Positions 11,908-36,638 of a DNA stretch of 40,023 bases are shown piece after piece (positions within the stretch are counted from its first letter, which is position 1; each line of letters opens with the position of its first letter). The notes beneath the pieces are model-generated. The model was given only the letters and a program-made list of their open reading frames with translations. It was not told the DNA's origin and ran no database searches. The stretch covers positions 1 to 40,023 of the forward strand of contig CAYGJE010000001.1 in NCBI GenBank assembly GCA_964350215.1, written 5' to 3'. The position numbers were made by a program, and so were the translations under genes. This stretch comes from an uncultured Candidatus Saccharibacteria bacterium. Lineage in GTDB: Bacteria > Patescibacteriota > Minisyncoccia > UBA6257 > JAKLIH01.

Positions 11908-13107
11908 TTAGGCAACAACTTTTGTGACAACACCTGCTCCGACGGTTTTGCCTCCTTCACGGATAGCAAATCTTTGTTTTTCTTCTAAAGCAACTGGAGC
12001 AATCAATTTGACTTTAAATGTGGCAGTATCGCCAGGCATAACCATTTGGACTCCTTCTGCCAAGGTAACTTCACCAGTTACATCGGAAGTAAGAATAAAG
12101 AATTGTGGCTTATAACCTGTGAAAAATGGAGTATGTCTTCCACCTTCGTCTTGTGATAACACATAGACCTCTGCTTCAAATTGGGTATGTGGAGTAATTG
12201 AACCTGGTTTGGCAACTACTTGTCCACGGCGAATGTCTTCTTTCTTGATACCACGTAACAACAAACCAACATTGTCACCTGCTTGAGCGTCTTCCATGCT
12301 CTTGTTGAACATTTCAACACCAGTGATAACAGTTTTGGCTGTTGGTTGGTAACCAACTAACTCTGCTTCGTCGTTGACTTTGATATAACCACGAGCAATT
12401 CTACCAGTAACAACAGTTCCACGACCTTCGATTGTAAAGATGTCTTCGATAGGCATTAAGTATGGTTTGTCTGTTTCTCTTTCTGGTGCTGGGAAATAGG
12501 TATCAATTGCATTTAATAAGTCCATAATTGGTTGAACAGCTGGATCTTCGAAGGTTGTAGCTTCGGTTGCTTTTAAGGCAGATCCGCGGATAATAGGAAT
12601 TTCATTGCCTGGGAATTCGTATTTTGACAATAATTCACGGATTTCAGCTTCCACCAAATCAACTAATTCGGCGTCTGAAACCATGTCAACTTTGTTTAAA
12701 AATACAACCATTGCTGGCACACCGACTTGTCTTGCAAGTAAAATGTGTTCTCTGGTTTGAGGCATAGGGCCATCAGCGGCAGAAACTACTAAAATAGCTC
12801 CGTCCATTTGTGCTGAACCGGTAATCATGTTTTTGATGTAATCAACGTGTCCTGGACAGTCAATATGTGCATAGTGACGATTGTCGGTTTCATATTCTGA
12901 GTGATGAACGTTAATAGTAATACCACGAGCCTTTTCTTCTGGGGCCTTGTCAATATCGTCTATTTGAGATGCCTTTTTAATCAAACCCTTCAAAAAGAGA
13001 GCGTTTGAAATAGCGGCGGTTAATGTTGTTTTACCGTGATCAACGTGACCAATAGTACCAACATTCATGTGTGGCTTAGAGCGCACAAATTTTTCTTTTT
13101 CTGCCAT
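11908..13107 (-). CDS. tuf: elongation factor Tu
   Basis: [19 protein letters not shown] and SAL G-motifs. 399 aa, TAA stop, 20 nt upstream of rpsJ. Confidence 0.98.
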
Positions 13108-18469: not shown

Positions 18470-18710
18470 AAAACCCCGCCGGTGCGGGGGTCCAGCTAAA
18501 TATAGCTGGGGGTAAAATCTAGTTCTTAGGACCTTCCATCTATCCCTGCTAAATTATTTTCTAAATTTGCTAGATGTTTAGGTCTTCCCAAATTAATAGA
18601 TTTTAAATCAAAATACCCTGATCTCCTGACAGGCCTGGAAGACATCATCCCTTGGTAAAGAGCAAAGTTCGCCAAAGCGCCCAGCATAAAGCTGGGCTCT
18701 TTTTTATTTT
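18470..18710. ncRNA. unclassified structured RNA candidate (about 220 nt), strand unresolved
   Basis: No ORF in the region. Bounded by two GC hairpins: CCCCGCC-ggt-GCGGGGG at the left and GCCCAGC-ataa-GCTGGGC at the right. Contains a long composite helix 18512-18605 (TAAAATCTA/TAGATTTTA, AGGACC/GGTCTT, CATCTA/TAGATG, GC-AAATT/AATTT-GC). Confidence 0.45.
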
Positions 18711-18742
18711 TTATTTAAATTCATAAAAAAGTCAATATATCG

Positions 18743-18789
18743 TGAATTGGGTGTGTTTTATAGGGGTAATTCAAGATTTTTGTGATAAA
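18743..18789. repeat. 47-bp direct repeat, right-hand partner at 20423..20469
   Basis: TGAATTGGGTGTGTTTTATAGGGGTAATTCA[a/c]GATTTTTGTGATAAA, 46/47 identical, exactly 1680 bp apart. Confidence 0.92.
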
Positions 18790-18808
18790 TATTTAATGAT
18801 GATGTTTT

Positions 18809-19642
18809 TTAGCTTTCAACCAAGTATTGCTGAACCATTTGTTTATAATGGTCACAATAATTTTCAATAAAAGCTCCGTCTTCGAAAAGCGGCATTAAAT
18901 CTTCTTTGAGATATTTGGTATTAATTTTTTGGACCAAATCGTTTAATTTTGAGTACAATTCTTCTAAGCTGTCAATTTTTAAAGTGTCTTTGATAAATTC
19001 CATATTAGGAATAATTCCTTTTTGCAAATATCAAAGAAGATCAAAATAATCTCTACCTTTAAAATTATAATTGGCATCGTCGCCTTTAAAATATTTACGT
19101 GTAAAAATTGCACAGATTTTGGAGGCCATTAGTGTTTCCAAATCATAGTTTCTGATTATGAAGTTAAAACCCAAGGCCGAGACGGAGGTTAAGTCAGTTT
19201 TGTAAGTCCCGGAAATCGCGTCTGATATTTCGAGCTTGACATAAAGCTTGTCAGAATCGTTTTCATCAGCGATTCCCAATTCTTTTAAAATTGGAAATTT
19301 AAAATATATTTTTTCATACTGGCCTGAAATAGAATATTCTAAATTGTCAACTAAAAATTTTTGTTTAAAGTATTTTAAAATATCTTCTGCTAGATCTTTT
19401 TTGTTTATATCCTTGCCCTGTTCAGTGTCCATGTCAATATCCTCAGACAATCTATTCAATCCGTAGCAAACGCGCAAAGCGCTTCCGCCAATAAAAATCA
19501 AGTGCCTGCCGTATTCAGAATTATATAAAAAATTCAAAAAATAATATTGAAGATGTTGCTTCAAAAGATTACGAATTACTTCTTTAGGAACATCATCCTC
19601 AAGCTTGTTAGCGACAATTGTTTTTAATTCTTGTATAATCAT
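18809..19642 (-). CDS. abiEii: AbiEii-type nucleotidyltransferase toxin (277 aa, 1 in-frame TGA)
   Basis: LIFIGGSALR..YGL.RLSEDIDM NTase motif. ORFs 19031..19642 and 18809..19027 are joined by TGA 19031-19033 (..GRDYFDLL-W-YLQKG..). Confidence 0.8.
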
Positions 19643-19648
19643 AGCTTT

Positions 19649-20287
19649 TTATTTATAAATGCTTTTTTTTAAAATACTCGCGATACGTTTCATTTTTTTT
19701 GATTTTGATTGCAAGCAATAGTCATAAAATAAATTAAAATCATCTTTTGAAAAGTTTTCCCAGTTAATGCGTAAATCTTCTAAAATTTCTTGCTTCAACT
19801 TGTTGCTAATATTTTTTTTAAGATATAAATAATCAAAAACTGCTTTTGATTTGTTGGCCTCAAAATAAACATTGGAAAGATATCTTTTTTCGCTATAACC
19901 AAAATAAAAATCTTTTTTTATAGAATAATAGATGAAGGATCCTAAAAAATTCTGATATTGTTTTCTAGTTTTTAATGTAACAGAAGTAATGCCATATATG
20001 GCTTCAGTGAGTAAATTATACTTTTGCATAACATATTCCTTGCTCAGATACGAAGGGCTCTTCAGTTGGCTAGCGACATATTCTCTCAACCCATCTTTGT
20101 CTTTTGATCTAACATAAAAATCATTAGACATGTAAAGTCCATTTTTAAGCTTTAAAATACTACCTGTTTTAAAGGCATATTTAATCTGAGCGTTTAATGT
20201 ATTAATTTTCCCTTTAAAATATATCGCTATATTTTGCTTGGAAAATAAAGGCATATTTTTTATAATCTCTTCTACGTTTTTTCCCAT
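19649..20287 (-). CDS. abiEi: AbiEi-family antitoxin / transcriptional regulator
   Basis: Lies 6 nt upstream of abiEii. The segment S.EY....Y.L..E.IYGITSVT....R.....G.F.Y..IK...Y.GY is typical of AbiEi_4-like proteins. Confidence 0.7.
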   Translation of the reverse strand: MGKNVEEIIKNMPLFSKQNIAIYFKGKINTLNAQIKYAFKTGSILKLKNGLYMSNDFYVRSKDKDGLREYVASQLKSPSYLSKEYVMQKYNLLTEAIYGITSVTLKTRKQYQNFLGSFIYYSIKKDFYFGYSEKRYLSNVYFEANKSKAVFDYLYLKKNISNKLKQEILEDLRINWENFSKDDFNLFYDYCLQSKSKKMKRIASILKKSIYK

Positions 20288-20318
20288 TTGATTTAGTTTT
20301 AGTATACTTTATATACTA

Positions 20319-20347
20319 ATTCTACATTAAAAAGTAATAAAAGTCAA
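20319..20347 (-). promoter_or_regulatory. abiEi promoter GGGTATTGACT-17-TAGAAT with downstream 8-bp inverted repeat
   Basis: TTGACT (20342-20347), 17-nt spacer, TAGAAT (20319-20324). TTAGTATA-cttta-TATACTAA at 20299-20319 lies between the -10 and the ATG. Confidence 0.65.
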
Positions 20348-20422
20348 TACCCTACCCCGAGGAAGAGACATCTTGGGCAAAGCTATTCATTTTGCAAAAC
20401 ATGTCTGTTTGCCCAAAAAACT

Positions 20423-20469
20423 TGAATTGGGTGTGTTTTATAGGGGTAATTCACGATTTTTGTGATAAA
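20423..20469. repeat. 47-bp direct repeat, partner of 18743..18789
   Basis: See 18743..18789. Confidence 0.92.
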
Positions 20470-20470
20470 C

Positions 20471-20494
20471 AAAAAGGGCGTTTAAGGTACGCCC
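20471..20494 (-). terminator. intrinsic terminator after CDS 20501..20857
   Basis: GGGCGT-n7-ACGCCC, followed by TTTTT on the minus strand, starting 7 nt after the TGA. Confidence 0.75.
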
Positions 20495-20500
20495 AAAACC

Positions 20501-20857
20501 TCAGTTGATTATGGCTTTTTCTAGTGGCCCATCTCGGTAAAAAGTAGAAGTTTGATGGTCAGGACGAGTTTCTTTTGGTTCAATCGTTGCCAAAACATGA
20601 TCATATGAAAATATTGCTTTGAACTCCTGTAATTTTTCTCCCAGCTTTTGGCGAAAGTCCTCAGTTGGGTTTATGCCCGCCAACGAACTCTCAAGCAATT
20701 CGAGTTCCCGTTCAAATTCTGTAAACGGTTTGTCAAAAAAAGGTATTTTAGCAAATTCGTCTATCTTTTGGTTTGCCAGGTCAAAAAGATATCTATCCAT
20801 ATTTTCATTTGCTACCATTTCTTTGATCTCTTCTATAGAACAATCAAAATCGTTCAT
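20501..20857 (-). CDS. hypothetical acidic protein (118 aa if TGA is a stop, 139 aa ending at TAA 20438 if TGA is read as Trp)
   Basis: GGAGGTG Shine-Dalgarno site 5 nt before the ATG. The ORF ends in TGA immediately before a terminator hairpin. No internal TGA or TGG. Confidence 0.6.
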   Translation of the reverse strand: MNDFDCSIEEIKEMVANENMDRYLFDLANQKIDEFAKIPFFDKPFTEFERELELLESSLAGINPTEDFRQKLGEKLQEFKAIFSYDHVLATIEPKETRPDHQTSTFYRDGPLEKAIIN

Positions 20858-20886
20858 ACTTCACCTCCTCTCAATATGCTGATTAT

Positions 20887-20915
20887 ATTATAGCATAATT
20901 TCACAATAAATGCAC
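20887..20915 (-). promoter_or_regulatory. promoter GTGCAT-17-TATAAT for CDS 20501..20857
   Basis: Hexamers read on the minus strand. Confidence 0.5.
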
Positions 20916-21082
20916 CTCGCGCTTATAAATAATTTTAGTATAGTTTTTGTTTGTTGTCGGTGGTTATTCCATGCACAAAATATGTTATTTTTATGGACAT
21001 GAGTATTGTTAATAATATTAATTTTATTAAAATAATTATTTTTAGCCCTTAATACTGCACAAAAGTTTTCCACAGAAAACTA

Positions 21083-22923: not shown

Positions 22924-22946
22924 TTGTTTATGGTGTTATTTTGTTT

Positions 22947-22989
22947 TATATATTGTAGCATAAAAGTTTTAAATTTTGTAATTAAGTTG
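22947..22989 (-). promoter_or_regulatory. 43-bp repeated promoter region (copy upstream of arfB)
   Basis: 42/43 identical to 24005..24047. Minus strand contains TTACAA-18-TACAAT. Confidence 0.6.
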
Positions 22990-22993
22990 ATTT

Positions 22994-23986
22994 TTATTTA
23001 ATTAAATTGATTATTAAGTTAATCATAACCTCCTTCTCTTCTGGACCACTGACTGACACTAAAAGAATTAGAGTTACTAAGGTGTTTTCTGAAATTTTAA
23101 GTTCATGGTTTTTGTCAAACAAAAAATTGTTTTTGTTTAGAAAGTATACAAAAAGAATAGCTGCAATCTTTTTGTTGCCATCGACAAAAGGATGTCCCTT
23201 GACGGCTAAATACAATAAATTGGCGGCTTTTTCTTCTACGGTCTTGTATAATTCCTTTTTATCAAAAGTTTGATGAATTGCCCCAATAATTCCCCTTAAT
23301 TTTTCCTCTTTGTTTTGAACTCCAAACAGATCAGTCAGTTCGTTGTTTTTATTCAACTGTTCTCTCATGCCGTTGATCACATCCAAACATTCTTCGTAGC
23401 TTAAAGAAGTTTTGTTTTTGTTCTTGGCTGTGTTTTTTAAAGACCTGAAGTCGTATTGACCTAGAATAGTCAATGATTTGGTGTATCTTTGGATAATATC
23501 AACTAATTCTTTTTCTTGGCCAATTAATATTGGCGTCTTGATCTTGTTATATATCAAGCTAACTGTGTCTTGCAGTTTTAAAATTTCTTTCTTCTGCTGC
23601 TCTAATAATCTTTTTTCGTTTAAAACATATCCTTTTAATAAATATTGTTTTAATGTTTTGGTGGCTCAAATACGAAAAGCCGTGCCAGCTTTGGATTTGA
23701 CTCTGTAGCCAACAGAAATAATGACGTCGAGATTGTAGTAAAGAGTGGGTTTTTTAGCAAATTCGGAATTTCCGAATTTCTTAATTGTCTGTATTTTATT
23801 TAACTCCCTTTCGGCGTATATATTTTGAATGTGTTCGTTAATGGTCGCCCTTGCTTTACCAAATAGCTGAGACATCTGTTCCTGACTTAGCCAAACGGTG
23901 TTTTTATCAATATCCACTTTGATCTGAATATTGTTGTTTTTGTCTTTATACAAAACTAATTTTTTGTTGTCGTCTTTTTTTGCCAT
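22994..23986 (-). CDS. RhuM-family N-terminal domain fused to Fic/Doc domain (330 aa, 1 in-frame TGA)
   Basis: ORFs 23666..23986 and 22994..23557 are in the same frame. TGA gives ..GTAFRI-W-ATKTLKQYLLKGY.., matching the conserved RhuM FR.WAT motif. Fic motif HPFVDGNKKIAA. Confidence 0.85.
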
Positions 23987-24004
23987 TATTGGTTTTTAGT
24001 TTAT

Positions 24005-24047
24005 TATATATTGTAGCACAAAAGTTTTAAATTTTGTAATTAAGTTG
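24005..24047 (-). promoter_or_regulatory. 43-bp repeated promoter region (copy upstream of the RhuM-Fic gene)
   Basis: See 22947..22989. Confidence 0.6.
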
Positions 24048-25676: not shown

Positions 25677-27791
25677 TTATTCTCGCACAGTTGGTTTTCT
25701 GGTTGAAATAATTTCTTCAGCAATATTTCTTGGAACTTCTTGATAATGGCTAAACTCCATTGTAAATGATCCTCTTCCCTCGGTGACTGATCTAAGATTG
25801 GTGGCATAGCCAAACATCTCAGATAGTGGGACTTGGGCATCAACAACTTTGAGCCCCAAACGATCGTTCATCTCTTCGATGCGACCTCGCTTGGAAGAAA
25901 TATCTCCAATGACATCTCCCAAAAATGGTTCAGGCACGATGACTTCGAGTTTCATGATTGGTTCTAGAATAACTGGTTGAGCTTTTAATGCTGCCTCTTT
26001 GAAAGCCATGGAAGCGGCAATCTTGAAAGCAAATTCTGAAGAGTCAACATCGTGGAACGAACCATCAAACAAAGTGACTTTTAAGTCAGATATTGGATAA
26101 CTTGCCAAAATACCTCGCTCAAGTGCTTCTTTTACACCTTTGTTGACTGATGGAATAAATTCTTGAGGAATTGCACCACCTTTGATTTCACTAACAAATT
26201 CAAATCCTTTACCTCTTTCCAATGGTTCAATCTTCAATCATACATGGCCGTATTGACCTTTACCACCAGATTGTCTGATGTATTTGCCTTCAGCTTCCGA
26301 TTTGCCATTGATGGTTTCTCGATAAGCAACTTGTGGCTTACCAGCATTGACTTCAACGTTGAATTCTCTTTTCATGCGATCCATCATAATGTCTAAGTGA
26401 AGTTCACCCATGCCACCAATGATAGTGTCATTGGTTTCTTCATCGGTCTTGACCACAAATGTTGGGTCTTCGTCGACAAGTTTTCTCAATGCTTCGCCCA
26501 TTTTGTCTTGGTCTGTTTTTGTTTTTGGTTCGATGCGTAGAGAAATAACTGGATCAGGAAAAACAATGTTTTCTAGAATAATTGGATGGTCAACATCACA
26601 AATGGTGTCACCTGTTTTGGTGTCTTTGAGGCCAACAGTGGCAGCAATATCGCCTGCCTCGATATCATCGATATCATCTCGTTTGTTGGAAAACATTCGG
26701 ATTAAACGACTAATTCTTTCTTGTTTATTTTTGTTGGAATTTAAAACATAGGTTCCTTTGGTGAGTTTGCCAGAATAGACCCTAAAAAATGCCAATGTAC
26801 CTACATATGGATCAGTAGCAATTTTGAAAACAAGTGCTGCAAAAGGTTCTTTTTCATCGGCTTTGCGTTGAACTTTTTCGCCTTTTTCGCCATCACCTTC
26901 CACAGGAGGTAAATCCAATGGACTTGGCAGAAAATCAACAACAGCATCCAACATCAATTGAACACCTTTGTTTTTAAATGCAGTGCCGCAAACAACAGGA
27001 ACTATTTTGTAGGCAATAACTGATTTACGAAGAGACGCTCTCAACTCTTCTATGGTAAATGTTTCGCCATTGAGGTATCTTTCAGTGAGATTGTCATCTT
27101 CGGAAGCAATTTTTTCTATCAGTTCGTCGTGTCTGGCTTTGGCTAATTCTTGCATATCTTCTGGAATATCAGACAAAGTGACGATTTCTCCATGAGCACC
27201 TTCAAAGGTTACTTTTTTCATTCTCATCAAATCGATAACGCCAATGAAATTTTCTTCTTTACCAATTGGTAATGTGAGAGCAACTGCGTTTGGGGTTAAT
27301 CTTTCGCGGATCATGACTAAATCTTTTTCAAAATCAGCGCCCATACGATCTAATTTGTTGACAAAACAAATTCTAGGAACAGAATATTTGTCGGCTTGTC
27401 TTCAAACCGTCTCTGATTGTGGTTCTACTCCAGCAACACCGTCAAACACAACAACAGCTCCATCCAAAACTCTAAGTGAGCGTTGAACTTCGGCAGTAAA
27501 GTCGATGTGACCTGGAGTGTCGATAACGTTTATTTTGTGTTTAAAATCTTGGTTGTTTTCTCTGTAGCTTGGCACTCAAAAACAAGTAGTGGCAGCAGAA
27601 GTAATAGTAATACCTCTTTCACGTTCTTGTTCCATTCAGTCCATAATAGCTCCGCCATCGTGAACTTCACCAATCTTGTGAGAAAGACCGGTATAAAAAA
27701 GTATACGTTCAGAAGTTGTGGTTTTGCCGGCATCGATGTGGGCAATAATACCAATGTTTCTGACTTTGTCTAATGGATATGTTTGGGACAT
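25677..27791 (-). CDS. fusA: elongation factor G (704 aa, 4 in-frame TGA)
   Basis: [14 protein letters not shown] and NKLD motifs. TGA codons fall at [36 protein letters not shown] and GKGQYGHV-W. Confidence 0.98.
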
Positions 27792-34923: not shown

Positions 34924-34979
34924 TTTAGAATATTAGGTTATTTGTTTAGAATATTGGGTTATTAGATTATTAGAACATT
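34924..34979. repeat. tandem TTTAGAATATTrGGTTATT boxes (2 full copies plus 1 partial)
   Basis: 19-bp units at 34924-34942 and 34945-34963 (1 mismatch, 21-bp period). Partial TTAGAACATT at 34970-34979. Confidence 0.8.
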
Positions 34980-34985
34980 GTCTTC

Positions 34986-36638
34986 TTATTTTCTAAAAAT
35001 GTTCTTTATCATATCCGACAATCCTTGGCTGTCGATTTTGTCTTTGATCTCTTTTCTCTTTTTTTCTATATCAATGTTTGTTTTGGGTGGGCGGCAATCT
35101 TCTCTTGGGGTATTTGAAAATCTTGTGTCTTGAAAAGATTGGCCACTTGGCTGTTGGCTTGGATAGTTATCATTGCTCATGGCTTGCTTTTTTGCCTTTA
35201 CTTCTTCAAAACATTCGTTGCAATAGACATTTTTGGATGGATCGGGCTTAAATGGCACAAGCGCTGGTTTTTTGCATTTGGAGCACACCACTTCTCAATA
35301 TTCGGTCTTGCTTTGAGTGCGTGGGTTTATATTGGATGGTGCAAATTCAAGAGCACTTCATTTTTTGATTTCTTTTTCCACCTCTTCCCTTTCTTTGGCA
35401 TATAGATTTCGGGAATTTTCAACTATTTCATTTTTGTAACTTATTTCATAAGGAGCAAGCGGTGGCTCACCATTTGCAGAAAAAGAATTTGAAGGCATGC
35501 CATCGATTAGATATTTGATATAAAAATGATAGTTGGGAATGTTAATCAGATCATTGGCGTTGAAATCAGGATGAAATTGTTTTTCTAGTGCGCTGGCATC
35601 ATCTGGGCCAATACGAAAAGAGATCATGGCACCAACGTTACCAAAAACAGCATCTTTTACTTTGTCGCTTAGCTGCTTGATATATTGATGAGTCAATATT
35701 AAGCTAAGATTGTATTTTCTGGCCTCAGATAAAATGTTGGCAAAAGATTCAGTGGAAAAAGTTTGAAACTCATCGATATACAAATAAAAGGCCTTGCGGT
35801 CTTCAAATGGCATGTCGGCACGAGACATGGCTGCCAACTGAATCTTGGTGACAATCAATGCGCCAAGAAGAGTGGTGTTTTCTTCACCAATCAAACCCTT
35901 TGACAAATTGACAATCAAAATCTTACCTTCGTCCATAATTTTACGAGGGTCGATATTACTTTCTAGCTGTCCGATAATGTTTCTTATAAGTGGATTGGAT
36001 ATAAACTGCCCTACTTTGTTTTGGATTGGAGCGATGGCTTCTCTTCGGAATTTTTGATCATATTTGTCAAATTCGTTGGTTCAAAACGCCTTGACTGTTG
36101 GGTCAGAAACTTTTTGAACAACATCTTGACGATAACTGTCGTCAGCCAACATACGATTGATACTAAGAAGTGTGGCGTTTGGATATTCCAATAAAGCCAA
36201 TATGGCATTGTTGAGAATATATTCCATACGAGCTGACCACACATCTGGCCAGATTTTTTTAAATACTGCCATAAGACCAGAGCTAACTATATGTCTAACT
36301 TCAATAGGAACTTGTTCCACAATGTTGAAAGCAATAGGTCATTCGATGTCAGCTGGATTGAAGTACACCACATCTTTTATTCTTTCCTTGGGAACATAAT
36401 TGATAATTTTGTCGGCTAATTCGCCATGTGGATCCACAATGGCAATGCCGTGATTTTTCATGATATCTGAAAAACACATGTTTTCGATAAAGGTGGATTT
36501 GCCGGTACCGCTTTTACCAATGATATACATGTGGTATTTGCGGTCGTTTTTTTTGATGCCAAATTTAACCTTGTTGGCACGAAAATTGGTGGTGCCTAAT
36601 ACAGTCAAGTCGTCGTTATTGTTTGGTGGTTTGGGCAT
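34986..36638 (-). CDS. VirD4/TraG-like (type IV coupling protein family) P-loop ATPase with C-terminal CxxC..CxxC zinc ribbon (550 aa, 4 in-frame TGA)
   Basis: Walker A GKSGTGKST and Walker B LYIDEFQ. ORFs 36339..36638, 36081..36320, 35358..35936 and 34986..35291 are all in one frame, separated only by TGA. C-terminal CSKCKKPALVPFKPDPSKNVYCNEC. Confidence 0.8.

Follow-up and report, generated by a model that had tools for sequence, protein, structure and literature searches.

The DNA analysed here (the window) is a stretch of 40,023 nucleotides (nt) from the genome assembly of an uncultured Candidatus Saccharibacteria bacterium (GCA_964350215.1, contig CAYGJE010000001.1, positions 1 to 40,023 of the forward strand). 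Two of its genes, abiEi and abiEii, are predicted from their sequences to form a complete, divergent AbiE type IV toxin-antitoxin (TA)/abortive-infection module. They lie between two direct copies of a 47-base-pair (bp) sequence, and comparison with sister strains showed that this cassette is gained or lost as one 1,680-bp unit. Recent turnover of abiE is shown by empty sites in strains that are 95-96% identical. As the process that removes or re-adds the cassette, RecA-type recombination between the two copies of a resident element is favoured, with a probability of roughly 0.58.

Repeat pair and enclosed cassette

Every gene at the locus lies on the minus strand, and the parts of the bracketed interval are as follows, in window positions.

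18743..18789: repeat copy 1, 3′ of abiEii in gene direction, with allele A at plus-strand position 32
18790..18808, minus strand: trailer of 19 nt, from the abiEii stop codon to copy 1
18809..19642, minus strand: abiEii, nucleotidyltransferase toxin gene, 277 amino acids (aa), intact with TGA read as Trp
19649..20287, minus strand: abiEi, antitoxin/repressor gene, 212 aa, full length
20318-20300, minus strand: putative palindromic operator TAGTATATAAAGTATACTA (TAGTATA-N5-TATACTA), abutting the -10 box
20347-20319, minus strand: abiE promoter, TTGACT-17-TAGAAT
20350..20422, minus strand: leader of 73 nt, unique, from copy 2 to the abiE -35 box, with an imperfect hairpin
20423..20469: repeat copy 2, with the terminator of gene 20501..20857 on one side and the abiE leader on the other, and with allele C at position 32

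The 47-mer reads TGAATTGGGTGTGTTTTATAGGGGTAATTCA[A/C]GATTTTTGTGATAAA. Its copies are identical at 46 of 47 positions with a start-to-start spacing of 1680, and they enclose 1,633 bp (18790-20422). A chance repeat was not reproduced in any of 100 dinucleotide-preserving shuffles of the window, none of which contained a match at three or fewer mismatches. In the whole genome (612 kb, 94 contigs) these two copies were the only ones, and an exact 22-mer from the core of the 47-mer had no match in 185,579 species genomes (one genome each). An earlier note on this DNA had described the pair as 46/47 identical, 1680 bp apart and enclosing abiE alone, and this was borne out by the coordinates, the shuffles and the genome-wide count. 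The 47-mer also proved not to be a dispersed repeat, a possibility raised in the same note: it is confined to one locus and flanks no other cargo.

Inside the repeats only abiEi and abiEii were found, with neither a recombinase gene, as had been stated before, nor a further credible open reading frame (ORF). There is no tRNA at the locus, no inverted repeat at the cassette ends and no visible GTTRRRY/RYYYAAC (attC) box in the 47-mer. The 47-mer does contain a dyad, ATCGTGAATT-N-AATTCACGAT, whose arms are separated by 21 nt. The corresponding hairpin is thermodynamically weak in the window (z = -0.7), so that a protein-binding dyad fits better than a structured recombination site. A hairpin element of the IS200/IS605 type or of the repetitive extragenic palindromic (REP) type was ruled out, since the hairpin persists in the empty site and copies of the 47-mer are not scattered over the genome.

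Empty and filled sites in sister strains

Gene 20501..20857 and the radical S-adenosylmethionine (SAM) gene that flank the cassette are absent from the species-representative genomes of the family; empty sites were therefore obtained from metagenome contigs only, by an exact-word scan. A contig from activated sludge (L027) carried one 47-mer, with a left flank corresponding to window 18539-18742 and a right flank corresponding to 20470-20945 at 96-97% identity, and two contigs from other samples (L040 and L056) had the same empty arrangement over 4.5-7 kb at 95-96% identity. The order at these sites is gene 20501..20857, its terminator, one 47-mer, a relic promoter and a convergent gene of 210 aa, beyond which L040 and L056 continue, as does the window, with genes for a 64-aa protein, a radical SAM enzyme, a phosphorylase and an ABC-F protein. 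Relative to the window, these sites are short of precisely one repeat unit and the cassette, together 1,680 bp. The empty site with a single 47-mer that the earlier note had predicted was thus found in all three contigs, and there the terminator of gene 20501..20857 is joined across one 47-mer to the flank at 18.5-18.7 kb, as foreseen. Presence and absence are exact between the window and the three sister contigs, in agreement with the proposal of a discrete unit bounded by the repeats.

The filled left junction (gene, terminator, 47-mer, leader and abiE promoter) was identical in five contigs from five samples (L033, L036-L039), and a separate assembly holds the full filled structure in one contig of 45.5 kb. 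Almost no credence is accordingly given to an assembly artefact, in which strain variants were joined or k-mer overlaps produced the repeat. The assembly is a metagenome bin of 94 contigs with many contig-end overlaps of 55 nt, and two Logan contigs break inside the 47-mer, both of which would fit such an artefact; against it, besides the filled contigs, the two copies show a one-base difference, and their length is 47 nt, which is not the 55 nt of the overlaps. Logan assemblies are made with k = 31, and breaks inside a 31-nt identical stretch are expected from such an assembler.

AbiE genes and genetic code

AbiEi matched its PADLOC profile at 6e-36 over residues 6-209 of 212, scored weakly against NCBIfam TAA_AbiEi (20.6 bits, cut-off 150) and had no Pfam match; on account of the last two results it is regarded as a divergent member. 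AbiEii was matched by Pfam PF08843 (1.4e-24, 87.8 bits, cut-off 22.5) and by PADLOC (1.9e-32, residues 7-255), and the motifs FIGGSAL, DIDMD and RDYFDLLW are seen in its translation. Both products have the same lengths in relatives (AbiEi 212 aa). Promoter and palindrome are kept at the start of cassette homology in six relatives (G002, G004, G006, G007, L030 and L031), and autoregulation of AbiE through the palindromic operator is predicted. No homologue of the 73-nt leader was found in the genome, the fetched loci or viral contigs, and neither an AbiEii relative nor the cassette was found on viral contigs.

The genome reads UGA as Trp. The abiEii gene has an in-frame TGA at 19028-19030 (context RDYFDLLWYL), at which the G002 orthologue has TGG; conversely, a TGG of the abiEi gene in the window is TGA in G002. 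Elongation factor G (EF-G; fusA, 25677-27791) is whole only with four TGAs read through, all four of which (4/4) correspond to Trp residues that are invariant in solved EF-G structures, and SecY, the phosphorylase and the radical SAM/SPASM enzyme are likewise whole only with TGA as a sense codon. The sole release-factor gene scored under the cut-off for release factor 2 (RF2) and itself contains TGAs; no RF2 is present in the genome. Since UGA is read as Trp genome-wide, the TGA in abiEii is a Trp codon and not a stop, a correction to the earlier reading, and the toxin gene is intact; for annotation, it counts as intact only under this code. A relative at NCBI, GCA_964644345.1, is already annotated with TGA = W. 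For Paceibacterota/Patescibacteria, the names borne by related records, the papers found describe only UGA = Gly.

The cassette and the 47-bp element in relatives

Homologues of the cassette DNA (window 18822-20349, -35 box to abiEii stop) were 85% identical in G002 and 73% identical in G004, G006 and G007, with flanks that differ each time. The 47-mer together with the relic promoter next to it, CGATATATTGACTTTTTT, is homologous to a stretch that lies right after abiEii and before a Fic gene in G011 (local alignment score 57, against 18 +/- 2.9 for shuffles). A gap in the G011 cassette was considered as a deletion and dropped, the gap being a run of N. In G004, G007 and L031 homologues of the 47-mer precede a Fic gene, directly before the -35 box of its promoter; a relic abiE operator without its ORFs comes before the homologue in G007 and L031, and in L030 the homologue lies upstream of an abiE cassette. 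Because its homologues adjoin abiE in relatives, the element is considered an old neighbour of abiE on both sides. The extension AATTMACGAKAYATTGAYTTTTTT was found once per genome, in three of eight family genomes only, among 151 genomes of the order. Both arms of the dyad are changed together in G004, to CGTTAATT/AATTAACG. The 47-mer reads as a protein-binding operator of a Fic gene now lost. It is an element resident at a single locus and not the end of a mobile element.

In G002 the cassette, with a small extra ORF, lies inside a direct repeat of 66 nt (L004 1408-1473 and 3587-3652; 82% identical, spacing 2179), the downstream copy of which holds a strong promoter, TTGACA-17-TATATT. This repeat was dropped as a homologue of the 47-mer (shuffle z of at most 2.5, against about 13 for G011). 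Relic copies of the abiE promoter/operator with the ORFs deleted, some with the first codons, were found in L031 (1937-1980 and 2975-3030), in L030 (3113-3170), in G007 (L006) and in G006 (L007, 3084-3132). The operators occur in two variants, TAGTATA-N5-TATACTA and TAGTG-N8-CACTA, which suggests two cassette subfamilies that may differ in repressor specificity.

Mechanism of gain and loss

A crossover between the two copies would excise a 1,680-bp unit with the cassette in it, presumably in circular form, and one 47-mer would stay behind; the reverse reaction, a single Campbell-type crossover between the circle and the resident 47-mer, would recreate the bracketed state. We infer that the reaction is homologous, not site-specific, and that it passes through a circular intermediate, the junction of which would run from 18790 through the 47-mer to 20422 (abiEii end, 47-mer, AGTTTTTTGGGC). 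The direction could be either loss in the sister lineage or re-gain in the window lineage; the linkage of the 47-mer element to abiE throughout the family favours loss in the L040/L027 lineage. A recA gene is present in the genome, in which one tyrosine recombinase gene was found elsewhere (C26:1114-1629) and no serine recombinase. Of the alternatives in the earlier note, loss by recombination between the repeats is preferred, given the one 47-mer left in sister strains and the presence of recA. At minus-strand position 16, copy 2, G011 and G004 have G, which completes the dyad, and copy 1 and all empty sites have T. This pattern suggests either separate ancestry of the two copies or a crossover located in the first 15 nt. 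Fresh duplication by fill-in is a poorer fit, since a single random mutation after it would recover the dyad-completing base only about once in 141 times.

Several points weigh against recombination between the copies. At 47 bp the homology comes close to the minimum that RecA needs for efficient recombination, and neither the first duplication nor the source of the 73-nt leader is explained by it. The base left of the repeat is G in the filled site and A in the empty sites, so that either direction needs one extra substitution. The ancestral-allele argument draws on two outgroups and on the logic of the dyad, with three other outgroups aligning ambiguously. The genome also encodes the one tyrosine recombinase, of unassigned site specificity.

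Among the other explanations, an older and longer tandem array, made by duplicating a unit abiE-[47-mer]-promoter-Fic and later trimmed by illegitimate deletions, is unlikely; in it the repeats would never have served insertion, and the empty site of the sister strains would be a later deletion between leftovers. The arrays in G007 and L031 (relic abiE operator-[47-mer homologue]-promoter-Fic-abiE) and in L030 (relic-[47-mer homologue]-degenerate promoter-abiE) point to modules duplicated and deleted repeatedly, and illegitimate deletions are frequent in the lineage (a loss of 827 bp, and the loss of a SAM riboswitch and metK; see below). Moreover, a pair of 44-nt promoters around a RhuM-Fic gene in the window is old yet identical at 43 of 44 positions, so near-identity need not mean recent origin. 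Such a history requires at least three events, however, one of them ending exactly at the edge of the 47-mer; the postulated full tandem was in no genome examined, and what stands immediately to the right of copy 2 has no relation to the promoter next to copy 1. Its deletion step is shared with recombination between resident repeats, from which it differs only in the origin of the repeat.

That a trans-acting recombinase, for example the sole tyrosine recombinase (C26:1114-1629), uses the 47-mer as its attachment site, and that the cassette is a non-autonomous element like cis-mobilizable elements (CIMEs), Xer-exploiting integrative mobile elements (IMEX) or pdif modules, appears improbable. 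Near-identical direct repeats of att-like length around cargo, an empty site with exactly one copy, the internal dyad symmetry and the existence of the recombinase gene would all agree with it. The arms of the dyad, however, are 21 nt apart, against 6-8 nt in the core sites of tyrosine recombinases, and no GC-skew switch marks dif; by site architecture and the missing switch, a dif/IMEX identity of the 47-mer was ruled out. No integrase is nearby, and the 47-mer occurs at a single locus and flanks no further cargo. In relatives it stands natively beside abiE and upstream of Fic promoters, with the compensatory arm change in G004, and the member of this cassette family in G002 has the unrelated 66-nt repeat on both sides. 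The dedicated attachment site of the earlier note is for these reasons not supported. Its duplicated target site, too, lacks support. A true target-site duplication, in which a foreign fragment was joined into a 47-bp staggered break by a transposase or by end-joining with fill-in, is very improbable, even though the repeat consists of local target sequence, a single copy occupies the empty site, and other modules of this genome, like the G002 cassette, lie inside duplications of different local sequences. There are neither terminal inverted repeats nor a transposase, and 47 bp is too long, target duplications being to our knowledge 2-15 bp. A chance landing beside an element that already adjoins abiEii in G011 would be expected at about one in several hundred intergenic sites, and the allele pattern indicates separate ancestry of the copies.

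Comparison with known systems

AbiE is reportedly a type IV TA/abortive-infection system of Lactococcus and Streptococcus agalactiae (Dy et al. 2014; Hampton et al. 2018, the latter being ref. 25 of PMC8562856). Like those systems, the module in the window has the antitoxin gene first, ending 6 nt before the start of the toxin gene, an AbiEii nucleotidyltransferase domain with GGS, DIDMD and RDYFDL, a full-length profile match for AbiEi, and a palindromic operator, here predicted, that overlaps the promoter. Unlike them, it belongs to a host of the candidate phyla radiation (CPR) with a 0.6-Mb genome and UGA = Trp, and has one such codon in the toxin gene; its AbiEi is too divergent for Pfam, and the cassette is surrounded by 47-bp repeats.

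CIMEs, Xer-dependent IMEX elements and the Acinetobacter pdif modules with TA genes are non-autonomous and borrow a recombinase of the host. These are the nearest mobile analogues, sharing cargo without its own recombinase, short repeated sites, presence/absence polymorphism and the frequency of TA cargo, and their defining site features are lacking here: the 47-mer has no core-site architecture, is neither dif nor a tRNA end, is present at one locus only, and is exchanged for an unrelated repeat in another genus (G002). Campbell-type single crossovers, and deletions between short direct repeats that are mediated by RecA or by slippage of replication, correspond in the alternation of repeat-cargo-repeat with one repeat, the resident repeat and the presence of recA; a homology of only 47 bp is unlike the typical Campbell-type case. 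Integron gene cassettes, including the TA cassettes of chromosomal superintegrons, are similar in being small one-operon units without a mobility gene, with imperfect palindromes between them, in an accessory/defence array. They differ in that the present cassette has no attC consensus, no IntI or attI nearby and its own promoter, and in that the repeats vary by module.

Flanking direct repeats were described around TA loci of Mycoplasma mycoides and were read by the authors as recombination scars (PMC8562856). Those genomes are likewise small and read UGA as Trp, carry AbiE and Fic modules in variable regions, and have direct repeats around a TA module without a mobility gene inside (PMC8562856). 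Their repeats flank an AAA-ATPase/subtilisin module, in contrast to the abiE repeats, no empty site was shown, and the lineage is unrelated (PMC8562856). The event described here is of an ordinary kind, well documented in an unusual organism. Its interest is that a complete AbiE module in an ultra-small genome of the symbiont type, itself encoding no mobility gene, is documented by an exact empty site as a unit of gain and loss, and that copies of local regulatory DNA border such units on both sides. If this were general, CPR bacteria could reshuffle defence islands with RecA and DNA uptake alone, as the other bracketed genes hint.

Flanking genes and accessory island

The cassette is part of an island of about 12.5 kb between tuf (11908-13107) and fusA, which splits the str operon. 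Its other genes encode AAA_14/DUF4143, RhuM-Fic, an ArfB-like protein, an HTH-Panacea antitoxin and a radical SAM cluster with an ABC-F ATPase; candidate defence family matches were obtained for the AAA_14/DUF4143 gene and for RhuM-Fic (PADLOC PDC-S23). Pfam scans of the window ORFs detected no integrase in the 40 kb. Three features flank the repeats.

18536..18697, plus strand: 3′ remnant of the convergent 210-aa gene, consisting of its last 40 codons and an intrinsic terminator (18679-18697)
18706..18742, minus strand: relic Fic-type promoter, beginning CGATATATTGACTTTTTT, directly downstream of copy 1
20438..20857, minus strand: upstream flanking gene 20501..20857, function unassigned, 118 aa when ended by the TGA at 20501, 139 aa with UGA = Trp

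The canonical intrinsic terminator of gene 20501..20857 (20494-20476) follows the TGA, in a genome that lacks the means to terminate at UGA. With UGA read as Trp, translation would continue for 21 residues to the TAA at 20438-20440 within copy 2, the first 32 nt of which on the minus strand then double as the end of the read-through tail; in a relative the gene is annotated with 139 aa. The single difference between the repeat copies would alter one residue of this tail (Arg/Leu). That the repeat pair overlaps this read-through tail at copy 2 is a correction to the earlier reading.

On the other side, the relic promoter and the 47-mer form one conserved regulatory unit in relatives. The convergent gene is intact in L027, L040 and L056, where it has 210 aa, is Cys-rich, lies on the plus strand and ends in ...LEDIIPW* with its own terminator; the remnant in the window is identical at 34 of 39 positions to residues 172-210 of the intact L040 product. 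The window lacks 827 bp of L040, comprising the remainder of the convergent gene and most of a small gene downstream of it, to which the minus-strand terminator at 18489-18474 belongs, its 5′ part having gone in the same deletion. Rfam, at gathering and E-value thresholds, gave no match at 18470-18710 or in the repeats. By comparison with L027, L040 and L056, then, the RNA with a promoter that had been assumed at 18470-18710 is a gene remnant plus a terminator, and the annotation of a small RNA there is to be corrected.

Before gene 20501..20857, the window contains only the promoter and about the first 20 nt of a SAM riboswitch (20902-20966). In the sister contig L056 a full SAM riboswitch (Rfam RF00162, 57.6 bits) and metK are found at 772-2003. 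No tblastn match to metK was obtained anywhere in the 99%-complete assembly, although radical SAM enzymes are encoded.

Other bracketed modules and repeats in the genome

Further bracketed intervals were found by self-comparison of the genome. In the window, RhuM-Fic (22994-23986) lies between two 44-nt copies (22946-22989 and 24004-24047; 43/44 identical) that hold an extended -10 promoter, the downstream copy of which drives the ArfB-like gene. The same bracketing was seen in the relative L058 at 85% DNA identity with shifted repeat borders. The pair is therefore considered old, and kept similar because both copies are working promoters; the age of the abiE repeat can accordingly not be read from near-identity alone. 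Taking the promoter upstream of ArfB in the family genomes as the starting point, no clean empty site of RhuM-Fic was found. The intervals on other contigs are listed by the positions of the two copies.

C21, 327-393 and 1425-1491: 67 nt
C30, 5395-5517 and 6274-6396: 123 nt; a further pair in C30 at 994 and 1934
C36, 2631-2705 and 4019-4098: 80 nt
C10, 1-65 and 1815-1879: 65 nt
C93, 1-50 and 1293-1342
C1, 1-72 and 749-820

The bracketing copies are 39-123 nt long and consist of near-identical promoter, 5′ untranslated, ribosome-binding-site or terminator sequence, and the rule seems to be that a duplicate of the next gene's regulatory region stands in front of the inserted gene. It is rather doubtful that single-operon defence/TA modules (AbiE, RhuM-Fic and others) are routinely exchanged at duplicated regulatory 'joints' of 40-120 bp, with the 47-mer pair as one live example; if they were, the defence island of a 0.6-Mb genome would undergo integron-like turnover without an integrase.

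A dispersed intergenic repeat family of 50-100 nt, beginning CCCCTAAACCTTTAGAAAGCTTTCTAAAGGACGGGCCTACGGCTAATAATCTAATATTCTAAAC and unrelated to the 47-mer, was observed at many contig ends, and its copies are located as follows.

C2: 6615-6700, 18834-18934 and 23025-23125
C24: 1-56
C26: 568-631
C34: 5755-5809
C41: 4284-4372
C51: 3790-3890
C68: 2690-2780
Window: about 34940-34990

The copy in C26 adjoins the only tyrosine recombinase gene of the genome.

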